Below are positions 12,485-19,122 of a stretch of DNA of 64,000 nt, in pieces (positions within the stretch are counted from its first letter, which is position 1; every line of letters starts with the position of its first letter). The notes under the pieces were generated by a model. The model had not been told where the DNA came from and did not search any database. It worked only from the letters and a program-made list of their open reading frames with translations. Source of the stretch: Aequorivita nionensis (lineage in GTDB: Bacteria; Bacteroidota; Bacteroidia; Flavobacteriales; Flavobacteriaceae). A program made the translations under genes and the position numbers. The stretch covers positions 960,289 to 1,024,288 of the forward strand of contig NZ_CP130281.1 in NCBI RefSeq assembly GCF_046352995.1. The letters run 5' to 3'.

Positions 12485-12558
12485 TCCTCCTTAGCTCAGT
12501 TGGTTAGAGCATCTGACTGTTAATCAGAGGGTCCTTGGTTCGAGCCCAAGAGGAGGAG
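12485..12558 (+). tRNA. tRNA-Asn (anticodon GTT)
   Basis: Manual cloverleaf: acceptor TCCTCCT/AGGAGGA, D-arm GCTC-AGTTGGTTAG-AGC, anticodon stem TCTGA/TCAGA with loop CTGTTAA, and T-arm CTTGG-TTCGAGC-CCAAG. Confidence 0.9.
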
Positions 12559-12568
12559 CACAGTTAGA

Positions 12569-15429: not shown

Positions 15430-17220
15430 ATGAACGAACTAAATCAACACCTCGACACTCAGACTTCAAAAACAAATTCAGAAACCAATAACCTTGTAAA
15501 CGCTCGAAAAGAAGCGCTCCATCAAACTGGAGAAAAAGAAAAACAAGGATTTGAATGGCTTACCGAACACAGTCGTAATTTTTTAGCCTCAGGTTATATT
15601 GCTCCTGGTGTTAGTGCGGAAGAACGTATTCGCGAAATAGCAGACAGAGCCGAACAAATATTAGGAATTCCAGGTTATTCAGACAAGTTCTATAAGTATA
15701 TGTCTCAAGGCTTTTTCTCTTTGGCATCTCCTGTTTGGTCTAACTTCGGAAAGAAAAGAGGGCTTCCAATAAGTTGTTTCGGATCACATATAGACGATGA
15801 TATGGGCAACATTCTATACACCCAATCTGAAGTTGGTATGATGTCTAAACTTGGTGGTGGTACATCAGGTTATTTTGGGAAAATCCGTCATCGCGGAGCT
15901 GAGGTAAAAAACAATGGGCAAGCTTCTGGTGCTGTTCACATTATGCAATTATTTGAATCTATGGTTGATGTGGTGAGCCAAGGTTCGGTTAGACGTGGCC
16001 GTTTTTCTCCCTATTTACCAGTGGAACATCCAGATATTATGGAGTTTTTGGAAATCGGTACCGAAGGAAACCCAATTCAAGAGTTAACTCACGGCGTAAC
16101 CGTAACCAATCAATGGATGGAACAAATGGTAGATGGCGACGAAGAAAAACGTGCAATTTGGGCAAAAGTACTTCAGCGTAGAGGCGAAATGGGCTATCCC
16201 TATATTTTCTTTAAAGACAATGCCAATAATTTTGCAGTAGATGTTTATAAGGATAAAAACCTTCCTATATATGCCAGCAATCTTTGCACTGAAATAATGC
16301 TACCATCAAATGACAATTGGTCTTTTGTTTGCGTGCTTTCTTCAGTAAACCTACTTCACTATGACAAGTGGAAAGATACCGATGCAGTGGAAACCATGGT
16401 TTATTTCTTAGACGCTGTAATAACTGAATTCCTTGATAAATTAGAAGACTATCGCGACTCAGAAAGTAGAGAGGATCGCCAAACTTTTCTATTTATGGAA
16501 AGAGCCTACAACTTTGCAAAAGACAATCGTGCTTTAGGACTTGGAGTTTTAGGCTGGCATTCGTTACTACAATCGAAAATGCTTCCGCTTAACAGTCAGA
16601 AAGCTTATGATTTGAACAGTGAAATTTTTAGAGTTATTAAGGAGAAATCCTATAAGGCCTCAGAAGAGTTAGCTGAAAAATTTGGAGAGCCTGCAGTGCT
16701 TAAAGGCTACGGAAGACGCAATGCAACTCTTAATGCAATAGCTCCAACAACATCATCTGCCTTCATTTTAGGGCAAGTTTCACAGGGAATAGAACCAATA
16801 TGGTCCAATGTGTATGTGAAGGATATCGCCAAGATAAAAACAACCATTAAAAATCCATTTTTGGAGCAATTGCTTGAAGAAAAAGGAATGAACACTTTGG
16901 AGGTATGGCGAAATATTCGCGATTACGACGGCTCCGTTCAGCATCTTGATTTCTTGACAGATAAAGAAAAGGATGTATTTAAAACCTATTCTGAAATAGA
17001 TCAAATGGATCTAATTTATCAAGCAGCAAACCGTCAAAATCATATTGACCAAGGACAGTCGGTAAACATTATAGTACATCCTGAAATGCCTGTGAAAGAA
17101 ATAAATAAAATTCACGTGACCGCTTGGAAACTTGGATTGAAATCTCTTTACTATCAACACAGTATGAATGCCGCTCAAAAATTTGCACAGAAAAAAGACT
17201 GTGCAAGTTGTGAGGCATAA
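15430..17220 (+). CDS. nrdA: Class I ribonucleotide reductase catalytic subunit NrdA, short form lacking an ATP-cone
   Basis: 596 aa with the catalytic NLCTEIMLPS motif and a C-terminal CASCEA cysteine pair. It has no N-terminal ATP-cone and starts 1 nt after the nrdB stop. Confidence 0.85.
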   Translation: MNELNQHLDTQTSKTNSETNNLVNARKEALHQTGEKEKQGFEWLTEHSRNFLASGYIAPGVSAEERIREIADRAEQILGIPGYSDKFYKYMSQGFFSLASPVWSNFGKKRGLPISCFGSHIDDDMGNILYTQSEVGMMSKLGGGTSGYFGKIRHRGAEVKNNGQASGAVHIMQLFESMVDVVSQGSVRRGRFSPYLPVEHPDIMEFLEIGTEGNPIQELTHGVTVTNQWMEQMVDGDEEKRAIWAKVLQRRGEMGYPYIFFKDNANNFAVDVYKDKNLPIYASNLCTEIMLPSNDNWSFVCVLSSVNLLHYDKWKDTDAVETMVYFLDAVITEFLDKLEDYRDSESREDRQTFLFMERAYNFAKDNRALGLGVLGWHSLLQSKMLPLNSQKAYDLNSEIFRVIKEKSYKASEELAEKFGEPAVLKGYGRRNATLNAIAPTTSSAFILGQVSQGIEPIWSNVYVKDIAKIKTTIKNPFLEQLLEEKGMNTLEVWRNIRDYDGSVQHLDFLTDKEKDVFKTYSEIDQMDLIYQAANRQNHIDQGQSVNIIVHPEMPVKEINKIHVTAWKLGLKSLYYQHSMNAAQKFAQKKDCASCEA

Positions 17221-17265
17221 ACTTCGGAATTAAAAAATTTTTATAAACTCAACAGTAATTAAATA

Positions 17266-17306
17266 AAAGGATAGGTTCAAAAATAGCTGAGCCTATCCTT
17301 TTTTAT
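17266..17306 (+). terminator. Rho-independent terminator after nrdA
   Basis: GGATAGG...CCTATCC hairpin followed by a T6 run. Confidence 0.55.
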
Positions 17307-17372
17307 TCATAGATACATTAAAAGAAGACCACAAGAAAGATCAAAAATATTTAAATTTGCCCCAGTAATATA

Positions 17373-17463
17373 GGCCTCATAGTTCAATGGATAGAATAGC
17401 CCCGAAGCCTCGGGGTCCTAAACTTTAGATCCAAAACCACTAACCTTACCATCTTTGAGGCTG
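17373..17463 (+). pseudogene. tRNA-Arg(CCT)-like pseudo-tRNA: intact acceptor and D-arm, 5' anticodon-stem strand replaced by the CCCCGAAGCCTCGGGG hairpin, T-arm absent
   Basis: GGCCTCA-TA-GTTCAATGGATAGAAT-A-G[CCCCGAAGCCTCGGGG]TCCTAAACTTTAGATCC...TGAGGCT aligns along the functional tRNA-Arg(CCT) at 17942 except in the replaced segments. Confidence 0.5.
17400..17415 (+). repeat. GC-rich hairpin repeat CCCCGA-AGCC-TCGGGG (copy 1 of 3)
   Basis: The same 6-bp stem with a 4-nt loop occurs at 18070-18086 and 30620-30635. All three copies sit inside tRNA-like sequences. Confidence 0.6.
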
Positions 17464-17538
17464 CCTAAAGTGTCCTGACACCTTGTAATCATTGAACATA
17501 TATAATTCCGTACATTTGGTATTTACTATTTTTCCAGC

Positions 17539-17820
17539 ATGCATTATCTGTATATAATTTATTCCGAGAGTTTAAATAAATATTATATTGGTGAATCTCC
17601 AGATATCTTAAGGCGTTTAGATCAACATAACAAACATTATTTTCAGAAAAGTTTTACAAAAGCTGCAAATGATTGGAAATTTTCGTTGACATATCAATGT
17701 GAAAATAAAATACAAGCTTTATTTCTAGAAAAATTTATAAAAAGAATGAAGAGTAGGATTTTTATTGAAAAAATCATTGGTAACCCACATATACTTTCAG
17801 AAATATTAAAAAAGATGTAG
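17539..17820 (+). CDS. Small GIY-YIG nuclease-domain protein (URI-domain, YhbQ/COG2827-like)
   Basis: YIIYSESLNKYYIGESPDILRRLDQHN matches the GIY-(x10)-YIG...R...H core. The gene is very AT-rich and sits between a pseudo-tRNA and tRNA-Arg. Confidence 0.7.
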   Translation: MHYLYIIYSESLNKYYIGESPDILRRLDQHNKHYFQKSFTKAANDWKFSLTYQCENKIQALFLEKFIKRMKSRIFIEKIIGNPHILSEILKKM

Positions 17821-17941
17821 CTCTACCTTTCCAAATTTATTAACTCGCAACAACATTGATGAAGAGTAGGTCTTTGATTCCTATAGCTTGAAAAATGACT
17901 AGCGGTTTATTAAAAATACCTAAATTTAAACCCTCAAATAA

Positions 17942-18013
17942 GGTCCCATAGTTCAAGGGATAGAATAGGAGTTTCCTAAACTCTAGATCCAGGTTCGAGT
18001 CCTGGTGGGATCA
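17942..18013 (+). tRNA. tRNA-Arg (anticodon CCT)
   Basis: Manual cloverleaf: acceptor GGTCCCA/TGGGATC, D-arm GTTC-AAGGGATA-GAAT, anticodon stem GGAGT/ACTCT with loop TTCCTAA, and T-arm CCAGG-TTCGAGT-CCTGG. Confidence 0.85.
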
Positions 18014-18051
18014 CTAACTTTGGTCAAGGAATAACCCCAAAATGTCGGGAT

Positions 18052-18098
18052 TCTATTTAGATCCAAGTTCCCCCGATCCTTCGGGGTTGGTGAGGCTA
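18052..18098 (+). pseudogene. tRNA 3'-fragment (anticodon 3' strand, variable region, modified T-arm carrying hairpin CCCCGA-TCCT-TCGGGG, acceptor 3' strand TGAGGCT-A)
   Basis: It shares TTTAGATCCAA and TGAGGCT with the pseudo-tRNA at 17373. The T-arm is CCAA-GTTC-[hairpin]-TTGG, the same architecture as the Asp-like gene at 30612. Confidence 0.4.
18070..18086 (+). repeat. GC-rich hairpin repeat CCCCGA-TCCT-TCGGGG (copy 2 of 3)
   Basis: The stem is identical to copies 1 and 3 while the loop differs (TCCT versus AGCC). Confidence 0.55.
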
Positions 18099-18100
18099 CA

Positions 18101-18133
18101 AAAAACCGTTCCTTTTTAGAACGGTTTTTTTTT
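18101..18133. terminator. Bidirectional rho-independent terminator (AACCGTTC...GAACGGTT flanked by A-run and T-run)
   Basis: 8-bp stem with an A5 run upstream and a T9 run downstream. It serves the minus-strand dehydrogenase gene and plus-strand tRNA transcripts. Confidence 0.6.
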
Positions 18134-18174: not shown

Positions 18175-19122
18175 TCAATACTTCTCCTTCAAGTTTTCAA
18201 GCATTATTTTAGTCATTTCATCCAGAGAAATTTCACTTTTCCAACCCCAATCTACTTTAGCCTCACTATCGTCAATGCTTTGTGGCCAGCTATCTGCAAT
18301 TGCTTGTCTGAAATCTGGTTCGTAACTAATTTTAAATTCAGGAATCTGCTTTTGAATACTTTTAGTAATTTCTTCGGGATTAAAACTCATGGCCGAAAGA
18401 TTATAGGAACTGCGTATTTTAACCTTTTCACTTTCAGCTTCCATTATGCTTACTGTAGCATTTATGGCATCATCCATAAACATCATTGGCAGTGTTGTTT
18501 CGGCATTTAAAAAGCAAATGTATTTTTTGTGCTTCAAGGCTTTGTGGTAAATATCTACGGCATAATCCGTAGTTCCGCCTCCTGGAAGCGTTTTATAACT
18601 TATAAGCCCCGGATAACGGATGCTGCGAACATCCACCCCATAACGGTTGAAGTAATATTCACACCAACGCTCCCCGGTTTGCTTGCTGATGCCATAAACA
18701 GTACTGGGCTCCATAATTGTTCGTTGTGGGGTATCTATTTTAGGAGTTGTGGGGCCAAAAACTGCAATACTGGAAGGCCAGAATATTTTCTCAATTTTTT
18801 TATCCTTAGCCAAATTCAAAACGTGAAAGAGTGAATTCATATTCAGGTTCCACCCTTTCATCGGGAATTTTTCTGCAGTGGCAGAAAGCATTGCCGCCAT
18901 CAAATAAACATCAGTGATTTCGTGGCGAATTACAATTTCTTCAACTGCGTCATAATCCATTGCGTCCAAAATTTCAAAGGGGCCACTCTTCATTAGCTCT
19001 TCATCACCTTCGCGGATGTCGCTCGCTATCACTTTGTTCTTTCCAAATTTATTTCTTAGATAAATCGTCAATTCAGTACCAATCTGTCCGCAAGCACCAA
19101 TAATCAAAATCCGCTTTTTCAT
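18175..19122 (-). CDS. NAD-dependent epimerase/dehydratase-fold protein (extended SDR), likely L-threonine 3-dehydrogenase type
   Basis: N-terminal Rossmann motif GACGQIG and a YxxxK motif (YGISKQT). The 315 aa length is typical of the UDP-Gal-epimerase-like threonine dehydrogenases of Flavobacteriia. Confidence 0.65.
   Translation of the reverse strand: MKKRILIIGACGQIGTELTIYLRNKFGKNKVIASDIREGDEELMKSGPFEILDAMDYDAVEEIVIRHEITDVYLMAAMLSATAEKFPMKGWNLNMNSLFHVLNLAKDKKIEKIFWPSSIAVFGPTTPKIDTPQRTIMEPSTVYGISKQTGERWCEYYFNRYGVDVRSIRYPGLISYKTLPGGGTTDYAVDIYHKALKHKKYICFLNAETTLPMMFMDDAINATVSIMEAESEKVKIRSSYNLSAMSFNPEEITKSIQKQIPEFKISYEPDFRQAIADSWPQSIDDSEAKVDWGWKSEISLDEMTKIMLENLKEKY

Follow-up and report, generated by a model that had tools for sequence, protein, structure and literature searches.

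A tiny nuclease-palindrome cassette that apparently invaded an arginine-tRNA gene in marine Aequorivita

How does a working arginine-tRNA gene come to stand between two tRNA-like remnants, next to a gene for a nuclease of only 93 amino acids? The locus that raises this question lies in a 64-kb window (the whole stretch of DNA analysed here) from a marine Aequorivita. A selfish and very small cassette, made up of the nuclease gene and a short palindrome, has apparently invaded an arginine-tRNA gene, and the outcome is a working tRNA-Arg flanked by two disabled copies of the old tRNA.

The tRNA-Arg(CCT) locus with and without the cassette

From left to right the locus holds the putative resident promoter, a disabled tRNA copy (psi5'), the nuclease gene, a duplicated promoter-like box with the working tRNA-Arg, a second disabled copy (psi3') and the original terminator (Table 1). 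The elements named in a preliminary description of this DNA (psi5', the GIY-YIG gene, tRNA-Arg, the 3' fragment and the repeats) were all recovered, with small corrections to their coordinates. The orphan 3' fragment is present, but a start at 18052 is too late; both copies of the 11-bp repeat are real, but the second had been placed at 18055-18065.

Table 1. Features of the tRNA-Arg(CCT) site (17265-18133) and of its surroundings in the window
Feature	Position	Strand	Basis or remark
Ribonucleotide reductase (RNR) ORF, upstream neighbour	15430-17220		ORF list
Intrinsic terminator of the RNR gene, left edge of the tRNA locus	17265-17302	+	Terminator scan
TAAATTTG, Bacteroidota-type -7 box (TAnnTTTG), putative resident tRNA promoter	17352-17359	+	Sequence reading
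psi5', disabled resident tRNA-Arg(CCT), GGCCTCA...TGAGGCT	17373-17462	+	Alignment
Palindrome 1, CCCCGAAGCCTCGGGG	17400-17415	.	Takes the place of AAGTT (anticodon-stem 5' strand)
11-mer TTTAGATCCAA, two copies	17424-17434 and 18056-18066
TGAGGCT, two copies	17456 and 18091
TACATTTG, -7-box-like motif, putative promoter-type, 20 nt 5' of the nuclease start codon	17511-17518	+	Sequence reading
Gene for the 93-aa single-domain GIY-YIG nuclease	17539-17820	+	ORF list and Pfam
TAAATTTA, duplicated promoter-like box before the intact tRNA	17921-17928	+	Sequence reading
Functional tRNA-Arg(CCT), different allele (GGTCCCA...)	17942-18014	+	ARAGORN; Rfam 61 bits; blastn; alignment
psi3', partial resident tRNA-Arg copy, D-stem 3' strand to discriminator base	18029-18098	+	Alignments
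Palindrome 2, CCCCGATCCTTCGGGG	18071-18086	.	Takes the place of T-loop positions 57-61 (GATTC)
Original intrinsic terminator of tRNA-Arg, AAAAAACCGTTCC...GGAACGGTTTTTTTTT	18100-18133	+	Sequence reading; missing from the terminator-scan list
Full-length tRNA-Asp(GTC)-like gene, second product of the same system	30563-30646	+	T-loop 57-61 replaced by the identical palindrome

In psi5' the acceptor 5' strand and the D-arm are intact, the palindrome stands in place of positions 28-32, and the T-arm has been swapped for 21 nt of unrelated sequence. The unit retains its own acceptor 3' strand (TGAGGCT), which contradicts the idea that a tRNA gene was simply split; homologous units were found in loci L081, L082, L084 and L085. 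The psi3' unit has two palindromes, a degenerate one (18035-18049) where the anticodon stem would be and an intact one in the T-loop, and its 3' end and the downstream terminator are collinear with L005, where the same terminator hairpin lies directly 3' of an intact tRNA. By alignment psi5' spans tRNA positions 1-73 and psi3' about 22-73, with an overlap over 22-52. The 11-bp repeat, formerly regarded as target-site-like, comprises the anticodon-stem 3' strand, the variable loop and the start of the T-stem; it is the surviving tRNA stretch of two overlapping partial copies and no target-site duplication, and alone it is not significant (E about 1). A 22-nt stretch of psi5' (17378-17399) is 95% identical to the corresponding part of the intact tRNA (17947-17968; E=7e-5 within the window). 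Two of the three replaced segments in the pseudo-units are copies of a conserved palindrome (the psi5' anticodon-stem 5' strand and the psi3' T-loop) and not random decay. The 16-nt palindromes, hallmark of the whole element family, had been overlooked in the preliminary description.

Neither pseudo-unit was called by ARAGORN, even at a relaxed threshold, or matched by Rfam at E up to 10; at gathering thresholds, Rfam gave only known tRNAs over the whole window and no intron, sRNA or tRNA-like family. The -7 box upstream of psi5' is found with the same spacing 5' of the intact tRNA in L001 and L005. Judged by its sequence, it probably acts as a promoter and now precedes psi5' and the nuclease gene. 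The 30 nt before the intact tRNA resemble those before psi5' and those before the intact tRNA of L081. A sigma-70 promoter scan is uninformative for Bacteroidota.

One intact tRNA-Arg(CCT) occupies the site between the same flanking genes in L001, L002 and L005, of which L001 and L005 are close Aequorivita relatives, and empty alleles were found in all in L001, L002, L003, L005 and L006. The site is filled in the window, L082, L084, L081 (A. sublithincola) and L085, with nuclease identities to the window copy of 98-99% (L082 and L084), 87% (L081) and 83% (L085). A composite of 17373-17399, AAGTT, 17416-17434, 18067-18070, GATTC and 18087-18098 reproduces the orthologous tRNA-Arg(CCT) of L005 and L001 in 72 of 72 bases, and ARAGORN calls this composite a tRNA-Arg. 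The comparison of orthologous loci, with an uninterrupted tRNA in three of them and a perfect composite, is decisive: an ancestral single-copy tRNA-Arg(CCT) locus was entered by the cassette. The insertion or duplication event suspected earlier is thus borne out as a gain of about 650 bp, comprising a small GIY-YIG gene and a functional tRNA-Arg. The working tRNA matches the resident tRNA-Arg of A. vitellina L003 with 98.7% identity.

According to the RNR tree, the empty L001 and L002 are the sister group of the window clade, and L081 is placed in another clade, with the empty L003 and L005. Between the window and L081, third-codon identity was 87.2% for the nuclease gene, a value that its AT-richness may inflate, against 63.5% for RNR (Fisher p=1.8e-6), and the upstream intergenic region was 61% identical. 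The difference between cassette and flank indicates that the cassette was transferred among Aequorivita lineages more recently than the flanking genes diverged. As far as distribution goes, the earlier suggestion of a homing-type element fits this patchy occurrence and a cassette younger than its flanks.

The window palindrome is 16 nt long (CCCCGA-N4-TCGGGG) and occurs three times, with 0.3 copies expected. At the Arg locus it is confined to the non-functional tRNA copies, 139 nt upstream and 255 nt downstream of the nuclease ORF. The third copy (30620-30635) sits in the tRNA-Asp-like gene, which ARAGORN calls as tRNA-Asp once the palindrome is exchanged for five T-loop bases.

The nuclease family and its palindrome

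The 93-aa protein matched PF01541 over residues 1-71 with 49.3 bits (cut-off 22.6; E=6e-13). Residues Y5, Y16, G18, R26, H30 and E64 showed no variation in sets of 21 and of 26 family members, and the AlphaFold model (pLDDT 95) has the GIY-YIG alpha/beta fold, with the UPF0213 protein 1zg2, At-HIGLE, Slx1, the I-TevI catalytic domain and the UvrC N-domain as best PDB matches. Domain score, catalytic residues and fold all place the nuclease in the GIY-YIG superfamily. The GIY-YIG domain and C-terminal helices fill the whole protein, which has no second domain and no DNA-binding domain.

A profile search yielded 1,434 proteins of the family. Among 83 loci encoding it, a tRNA lay within 600 bp in 65 and the palindrome was present in 70, usually 16-30 nt past the stop codon. 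Distantly related Bacteroidota share one location: in the main nuclease clade, 55 of 77 genes follow tRNA-Phe at a distance of about 50 nt. The Aequorivita nucleases found at tRNA-Arg branch from within the Phe-associated clade, and the closest relatives of the window cassette are at tRNA-Phe. Across the nuclease tree the associated tRNA has switched among Phe, Arg, Asn and Met, and tandem arrays of nuclease and palindrome occur in L146, L118 and L150, with up to four gene copies. In the collections searched, the family was essentially absent from viral contigs and plasmids.

The constant place after tRNA-Phe and the absence from viral contigs and plasmids would suit a resident nuclease domesticated by the host, which might restrict or process palindrome-bearing single-stranded DNA, with the pseudo-tRNAs as by-products of local duplication or gene conversion; SsnA, a nuclease discussed below, has a host role in limiting transformation (PMC11893778). 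We consider such domestication quite unlikely, as the tRNA-Arg site is patchy with a cassette far less diverged at synonymous sites than its flank, the tRNA partner has switched, the genes form tandem arrays, and the working tRNA in the window is a foreign allele.

Across the family the palindrome is 16-18 nt long (YCCCGA-loop-TCGGGR). We counted 110 copies in about 1.05 Mb, where fewer than one is expected; all except one of them belong to partial copies of tRNA genes or to terminators of tRNA operons, and none was inside a called tRNA. Seventy-five are in a T-loop context, 51 of them substituting tRNA-Phe positions 57-61. Others are found in the D-loop, the anticodon stem of Arg, the variable loop of Asn and the loops of terminators; one copy lies within another palindrome. 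Most copies substitute the apex of a stem-loop; in the Arg and Asn cases a stem strand or variable loop is affected. The substituted tRNA positions are precisely defined (57-61, 14/15-17, 28-32 and 46-50), and the acceptor and D or T stems are kept around the palindromes. The outer base pair covaries perfectly (T-A in 64, C-G in 45). Asn-associated nucleases form the clade with the 18-mer GATAGCTATC; the clades at Phe, Arg and Met have the 16-mer. Palindromes occur in both orientations, and in L114 the segment between two of them is inverted. Pseudo-tRNAs that carry a palindrome but have no nuclease gene nearby were seen at 30563-30646 of the window and in L007, L009, L022 (an array of repeated promoter and pseudo-tRNA units) and L025, so that action in trans or gene loss must be assumed for them.

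Arrays such as that of L022, the tRNA promoter box retained by psi5' and the preserved stems could also suggest transcribed decoy, antitoxin or regulatory RNAs that would act, like those of type III toxin-antitoxin systems, on the nuclease or on enzymes of tRNA processing. This is very unlikely: psi3' folds no better than shuffles (z -0.2) and psi5' only marginally so (z -2.15), no Rfam family was matched, and SsnA shows no RNA binding (PMC11893778). The two palindrome orientations and the inverted segment between palindromes point instead to events at the DNA level.

How the cassette may spread

With moderate confidence, we regard the locus as one instance of a widespread selfish cassette of Bacteroidota that is associated with tRNA genes and consists of a stand-alone GIY-YIG nuclease and its cognate palindrome. 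By analogy with SsnA and its NTS repeat, we infer a mechanism in which the nuclease would bind the palindrome extruded as a hairpin in single-stranded DNA; heavy transcription of tRNA operons should often expose such single strands. The cut would fall adjacent to the hairpin, and a break within tRNA-derived sequence would lead to RecA-type repair, for which every intact copy of this highly conserved tRNA gene could serve as partner. Where a crossover or a tract of synthesis lay on the palindrome's far side, the nuclease gene would be copied beside the intact tRNA and a palindrome-marked partial copy left behind, giving the architectures 'tRNA, nuclease, 3' fragment' or '5' fragment, nuclease, tRNA'. 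Misaligned repair could produce the tandem arrays and inversions. The tRNA sequence would be a homology arm that is portable, and the signal for expression would come from the tRNA promoter.

A hydrolytic nuclease plus recombination accounts for copying of the cassette but not for the palindrome replacing 3-7 nt at the apices of unrelated stem-loops; these unexplained substitutions include terminator loops and another palindrome. The location of most members at one conserved place after tRNA-Phe could be a sign of long residence and not of mobility.

Tentatively, and with a rather low probability, the 16-18-nt palindrome could itself be the mobile unit. The nuclease, acting in trans, would open a stem-loop apex, and the gap of 3-7 nt would be filled by a copy of the palindrome; any sufficiently stable DNA stem-loop exposed as a single strand (tRNA arms, terminators, another palindrome) would be a target. 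If true, DNA would be inserted by a mechanism that targets structure and is of a type so far undescribed, with tRNA genes as the natural prey and gene duplication as the host's escape route.

Classical homing deserves comparable, limited credence. A free-standing homing endonuclease would cut the intact tRNA gene at the palindrome positions, the filled allele would template repair, and the palindromes would be no more than immunity patches by which the target is destroyed in the leftover copies. The precisely defined tRNA positions that they substitute and the presence/absence polymorphism at one site agree with homing, as do weak profile matches of the nuclease to homing endonucleases (TIGR01453 and PHROGs) and the precedent of SegB from T4, a homing enzyme of GIY-YIG type active in a cluster of tRNA genes (PMC2330249). 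But in L081 the intact tRNA adjoining the nuclease equals the empty alleles in 72 of 72 bases and so would be cut; therefore immunity by target alteration is not its protection. A patch that only conferred immunity could have any sequence, yet conservation of the palindrome, with perfect covariation, extends over nucleases only 45-99% identical and over Phe, Arg, Asn, Met and Asp genes. It also occurs in terminator loops and within another palindrome, and the 93-aa protein lacks a DNA-binding domain.

Full-text searches turned up no account of a GIY-YIG gene or a palindrome lying within copies of bacterial tRNA genes; we found the cassette undescribed in the searchable literature, and the same design stands beside tRNA genes in many related bacteria. 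Genes for tRNA are among the most conserved and most transcribed sequences of the cell. If the selfish-cassette reading is true, the use of a tRNA as landing pad, homology arm and promoter would be a new route for selfish DNA across species. It would account for tRNA-like sequences of Bacteroidota missed by tRNA finders, namely tRNA copies, whether partial or full-length, in which one loop contains a GC-rich hairpin and which are sometimes arrayed in tandem. The locus would also exemplify a genome exchanging an essential tRNA allele via a selfish cassette.

Comparison with known systems

Genes for tRNA are classical integration sites, and group I introns are known in the tRNA-Arg(CCU) of some bacteria. 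An integrase-type island, a group I intron with its homing endonuclease, or tandem duplication followed by random decay could therefore be considered, but we find these ordinary processes extremely improbable here. Islands resemble the window locus in that one of their ends carries an intact tRNA and the opposite end an orphan 3' fragment of a tRNA. The locus differs in that no integrase is present (the GIY-YIG gene is the sole ORF of at least 60 aa in 650 bp), no more than about 650 bp were gained, partial copies of the 5' side occur too, and the tRNA repeats are interrupted by palindromes. For an intron, neither Intron_gpI nor any other ribozyme of Rfam was matched at E up to 10, and the pseudo-units overlap at 22-52 and are not split exons. 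The palindrome architecture, recurring in 70 of 83 loci, excludes random decay.

The IS200/IS605 elements and the REP/RAYT systems, which use HUH Y1 transposases, likewise combine a small gene with short palindromes that act as single-stranded hairpins, and have non-autonomous palindrome copies elsewhere in the genome. They differ in that strand transfer is impossible for a hydrolytic GIY-YIG nuclease and in that palindromes of the window type are confined to tRNA-derived and terminator stem-loops. An IS200/IS605 reading of the locus was rejected; no HUH or Y1 transposase is present.

The Seg enzymes of T4-like phages (SegB in the T4 tRNA gene cluster, PMC2330249) share with the window nuclease a GIY-YIG gene between or beside tRNA genes and presence/absence polymorphism among relatives; the window site is polymorphic, with an element younger than its flanks. 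Co-conversion of flanking tRNA sequence is a further parallel, given the foreign tRNA-Arg allele in the window. In contrast, Seg enzymes are at least 200 aa long and have, after their N-terminal GIY-YIG domain, a C-terminal DNA-binding domain, which the bare catalytic domain of 93 aa lacks, and they cut double-stranded DNA of the empty allele. The conserved palindrome is found only on the window side of this comparison. Here, moreover, the host tRNA has been duplicated and disabled, not simply replaced, and the elements are chromosomal in Bacteroidota and were not found in phage contigs.

Among known systems the Ssn family, of which the window nuclease is not a demonstrated member, comes closest. 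Ssn proteins are nucleases that act site-specifically on single-stranded DNA and are paired with NTS/SRM hairpin repeats (Chenal et al., Nat Commun 2025, PMC11893778). SsnA (CAX49033.1) consists of a single GIY-YIG domain, is 94 aa long and has Y6, Y17 and E64 as catalytic residues; it binds the TTCCCGCG...CGCGGGAA hairpin only as single-stranded DNA and cuts a few nt upstream, and its gene is arranged as NTS-ssnA-NTS (PMC11893778). A term search of the paper found no mention of tRNA or Bacteroidota.

By sequence, an Ssn protein is defined by blastp E<1e-10 to N. meningitidis SsnA or by cd10448 as top CDD hit. In tblastn searches the window protein had no match at E up to 10 to the two N. gonorrhoeae chromosomes in the collection; against the plasmid collection there was nothing at E up to 0.01 and only irrelevant matches at E up to 10, one of them a Legionella GIY-YIG in an exonuclease operon. 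A 49-kb stretch of gonococcal chromosome held no GIY-YIG ORF, and a Sphingomonas plasmid carrying NTS copies held no GIY-YIG gene. An NTS-flanked homologue of SsnA type was found in an Aeromonas caviae chromosome mislabelled as a plasmid, and the family profile matched it marginally (27 bits; hhalign probability 67%, E=5e-5, 24% identity). The published SRM pattern HGTCWYN(0-2)YYVSBRHN(0-5)WNVSBRGN(0-2)RNCYNB, which found the NTS in a control, had no matches in the 64-kb window or in 256 kb of family loci.

Compared with the window repeat, the Ssn repeat is longer than 16-18 nt and has an oriented GTC flank; it is dispersed in intergenic regions, whereas the repeats described here are embedded in partial tRNA copies and terminators, mostly at apices. 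The likenesses concern the overall design. Both systems have a stand-alone, single-domain GIY-YIG protein of 93-94 aa that has no DNA-binding domain and carries the catalytic Tyr/Tyr/Glu at the same positions. Both flank the gene, on one side or on both, with a short inverted repeat that is rich in GC and has the core YCCCG...CGGGR, and hairpin-forming repeats lie within 500 bp of the window gene, as they do in Ssn systems. In both, the repeat variant co-varies with the nuclease clade, and the layout is the IS-like 'repeat, gene, repeat'. The pairing of nuclease and hairpin seen in Ssn would thereby extend to another phylum, another motif and another genomic niche, and, as small sequence- and structure-specific single-stranded DNA nucleases are wanted as tools, the family offers many natural nuclease-palindrome pairs.

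Architecture and ancestral state of the tRNA-Arg(CCT) locus

The rearranged locus of the preliminary description was confirmed with all of its motifs present, and the interpretation attached to it was partly supported. The 93-aa ORF encodes a GIY-YIG domain protein (PF01541, E=6e-13). Neither psi5' nor psi3', the two disabled partial tRNA copies on either side of the nuclease gene and the working tRNA, was called by ARAGORN or Rfam; at this locus both tools call the middle tRNA only.

Features of the tRNA-Arg(CCT) locus in the window
Feature	Positions	Strand	Remark
Ribonucleotide reductase large-subunit gene	15430-17220	+	left flank of the locus
Terminator	17265-17302	+	
Bacteroidota-type promoter box TAAATTTG	17352-17359	+	
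psi5', tRNA-like unit	17373-17462	+	
93-aa ORF, nuclease gene	17539-17820	+	
Second promoter-like box	17921-17928	+	
tRNA-Arg(CCT)	17942-18014	+	called by ARAGORN and Rfam
psi3', partial tRNA-like unit	18029-18098	+	
Terminator after psi3'	18100-18133	+	
Epimerase-family gene	18175-19122	-	right flank of the locus

We compared 80 loci from reference genomes, retrieved with the flanking reductase. The ancestral tRNA gene proposed earlier was recovered in relatives: Aequorivita sp. (L001), A. todarodis (L002) and A. antarctica (L005) each hold one intact, uninterrupted tRNA-Arg(CCT) at the orthologous site, and in A. antarctica this tRNA is directly followed by the terminator also seen in the window. 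Taken together, the 5' portion of psi5' and the 3' portion of psi3' reproduce this tRNA exactly (72/72 bases; 17373-17399 + AAGTT + 17416-17434 + 18067-18070 + GATTC + 18087-18098), and ARAGORN calls the composite tRNA-Arg. In the window these two portions depart from the ancestral tRNA solely in two substitutions by a 16-nt palindrome, which replaces the anticodon-stem 5' strand in psi5' (CCCCGAAGCCTCGGGG) and T-loop positions 57-61 in psi3' (CCCCGATCCTTCGGGG). Since psi5' also retains the acceptor 3' strand and psi3' extends back to the D-stem, the units are overlapping partial copies. The 11-bp repeat TTTAGATCCAA is present, with its second copy at 18056-18066 rather than 18055-18065, but it is tRNA sequence shared by the two overlapping copies and not a target-site duplication. 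The working middle tRNA is a different allele from the resident one, with compensatory changes in three stems; it shares 98.7% identity with the tRNA-Arg resident in A. vitellina (L003). An intron, an integrase and plain decay each failed direct tests. At the orthologous site of an Aequorivita MAG (L027 5921-5993), the resident tRNA-Arg body carries the anticodon CTT instead of CCT and is called tRNA-Lys by ARAGORN, reflecting either an anticodon shift or a sequencing error.

Spread of the cassette among Aequorivita

Two near-identical assemblies (L082 and L084) share the window-type arrangement, as do A. sublithincola (L081), whose nuclease is 87% identical, and a further Aequorivita (L085), with 83%. 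The reductase tree places the window clade as sister group of the cassette-free ("empty") L001 and L002; A. sublithincola belongs to a different clade, next to the empty L003 and L005. When the window is compared with A. sublithincola, third codon positions are 87.2% identical in the nuclease gene versus 63.5% in the reductase (p=1.8e-6), and neighbouring intergenic DNA is 61% identical. The cassette copies thus share a more recent ancestor than their flanks, evidence from sequence comparison that the cassette (nuclease gene plus palindrome) was transferred horizontally into the same tRNA-Arg site. Two points weaken the reading of the nuclease as a classical homing enzyme whose cleavage target is the intact tRNA gene: the tRNA next to the nuclease in A. 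sublithincola has the same sequence as the empty alleles, and an immunity scar would not need a conserved sequence.

The nuclease family and its palindrome

The nuclease is a bare GIY-YIG domain (AlphaFold model pLDDT 95) with invariant residues Y5, Y16, G18, R26, H30 and E64; among solved structures, its fold is closest to those of UPF0213, of Slx1 and HIGLE, which are structure-specific nucleases, and of the catalytic domain of I-TevI. A profile search matched 1,434 proteins; among the 120 matches listed, all were of the same short type and all those with a named source were Flavobacteriia. A tRNA lies within 600 bp of the nuclease gene in 65 of 83 family loci, and the palindrome YCCCGA-N4-TCGGGR is found in 70 of the 83. 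The Aequorivita tRNA-Arg nucleases are nested within a tRNA-Phe-associated clade, indicating a switch of host tRNA. A distant clade (30-48% identical) sits at tRNA-Asn (L030 856-1323; L025 1599-1800; L155, L158), where partial tRNA-Asn copies carry an 18-nt palindrome, YCCCGATAGCTATCGGGR, in either the variable loop or the D-loop. Palindrome type tracks nuclease clade: the tRNA-Asn-associated clade has the 18-mer GATAGCTATC, and the clades at Phe, Arg and Met have the 16-mer. The association of nuclease and palindrome at tRNA genes is widespread in Bacteroidota. The window's own tRNA-Asn (12485-12559) is uninvaded.

Two architectures recur. One consists of an intact tRNA, its terminator, the nuclease gene, a tRNA 3' fragment with its T-loop replaced by the palindrome, and the same terminator again; the other of a 5' tRNA fragment whose D-loop contains the palindrome, the nuclease gene, a duplicated promoter and an intact tRNA. 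The window locus combines both. In 1.05 Mb of sequence we counted 110 palindromes (<1 expected), none within a called tRNA: 75 in a T-loop context (51 replacing tRNA-Phe positions 57-61), seven in the tRNA-Arg anticodon stem, six in D-loops, six in the loop of a tRNA terminator, three in the tRNA-Asn variable loop and one nested in another palindrome's loop (L147 2293-2320). Of the 110, a single palindrome, which has a mismatched outer pair, falls in none of these contexts. At the outer pair, 64 palindromes have T-A and 45 have C-G, with no mixed cases; most copies have the loop AGCN, and about 12% have its reverse complement. The same palindrome replaces 3-7 nt at the apex of unrelated stem-loops, and the loop of the intrinsic terminator after tRNA-Phe is replaced at L109 2345, L114 2345 and 2738, and L130 30 and 619, so the targets are stem-loop apices in general and not tRNA loops alone. 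The nuclease-palindrome unit is tandemly repeated in L146, L118 and L150. The second repeat unit of L114 has the stretch between two palindromes in inverted orientation (2316-2345 vs 2690-2760), which, together with the L147 nesting, suggests that palindromes are active recombination or insertion sites. A resident, domesticated nuclease would fit the conserved position at tRNA-Phe, but not the patchiness, age difference, arrays and tRNA switches. A decoy role at the RNA level lacks support.

Palindrome-marked pseudo-tRNAs without a nearby nuclease gene occur in L007, L009, L022, L025 and the window. The window example (30563-30646) is a full-length tRNA-Asp(GTC)-like gene 2 nt after tRNA-Tyr, in which a palindrome at 30620-30635, identical to that of psi5', replaces T-loop positions 57-61; with five T-loop bases in its place, ARAGORN calls tRNA-Asp. 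A 1-kb stretch free of ORFs contains more odd tRNA-like pieces, at 30830-30999. A 3' piece whose T-arm is intact (about 30838-30866) is followed head-to-tail by a tRNA-like unit in which the anticodon arm is shortened and TTCCTAA is extra (30870-30936); there is also a tRNA-Lys(TTT)-like sequence (30940-30999; Rfam 36 bits, no ARAGORN call). An Aequorivita MAG (L022 5990-6940) holds a tandem pseudo-tRNA-Arg array ending in an intact tRNA-Arg, and every unit has a promoter-like box to itself and as many as three palindromes, in the D-loop, the anticodon stem and the T-loop. No nuclease gene is present in this array, but a truncated homologue lies 5 kb away (1129-1317). Around the T-arm, a pseudo-tRNA-Phe in L128 (1715-1770) has GC-rich hairpins of other kinds; one, TTCCGCGCAGCGGAA, resembles the core of the Neisseria NTS repeat.

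Proposed mechanism and relation to SsnA

Conservation of the palindrome, its covariation and its tracking of nuclease clades argue for specific recognition by the nuclease. We propose that the enzyme would cut beside its own palindrome in single-stranded DNA, and that the break, because it sits in tRNA-derived sequence, would be repaired by recombination with an intact tRNA gene copy. If a crossover fell beyond the palindrome, exactly the observed architectures would result, and misaligned repair could give arrays and inversions. These steps do not account for the palindrome's replacement of apical nucleotides in unrelated stem-loops.

The closest precedent is SsnA of Neisseria, a 94-aa GIY-YIG nuclease (catalytic Y6, Y17, E64) that binds its hairpin repeat (NTS; core TTCCCGCG...CGCGGGAA) only as single-stranded DNA, cuts a few nucleotides upstream of it and is often flanked by its own repeats (PMC11893778). 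Membership of the window nuclease in the Ssn family is not established: the cassette palindromes did not match the published SRM repeat pattern, tblastn found no match to the nuclease in gonococcal chromosomes, and the nuclease profile aligned end to end, marginally, with an NTS-flanked Aeromonas homologue. Aeromonas caviae (L167 3001-3485) has a textbook NTS, GIY-YIG, NTS unit. The PLSDB records NZ_CP119142.1 and NZ_AP026896.1 (L164, L167) are whole chromosomes labelled plasmids (N. gonorrhoeae, 2.17 Mb; Aeromonas caviae, 4.9 Mb). The Ssn paper (PMC11893778) makes no mention of tRNA or Bacteroidota, and in the full-text literature we found no report of such nuclease genes or palindromes in tRNA gene copies. 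By analogy, the cassette may work in the manner both of Ssn-type pairs of nuclease and repeat and of free-standing, SegB-type homing genes (PMC2330249). It represents a new, tRNA-embedded form of the pairing of a GIY-YIG nuclease with a hairpin repeat.
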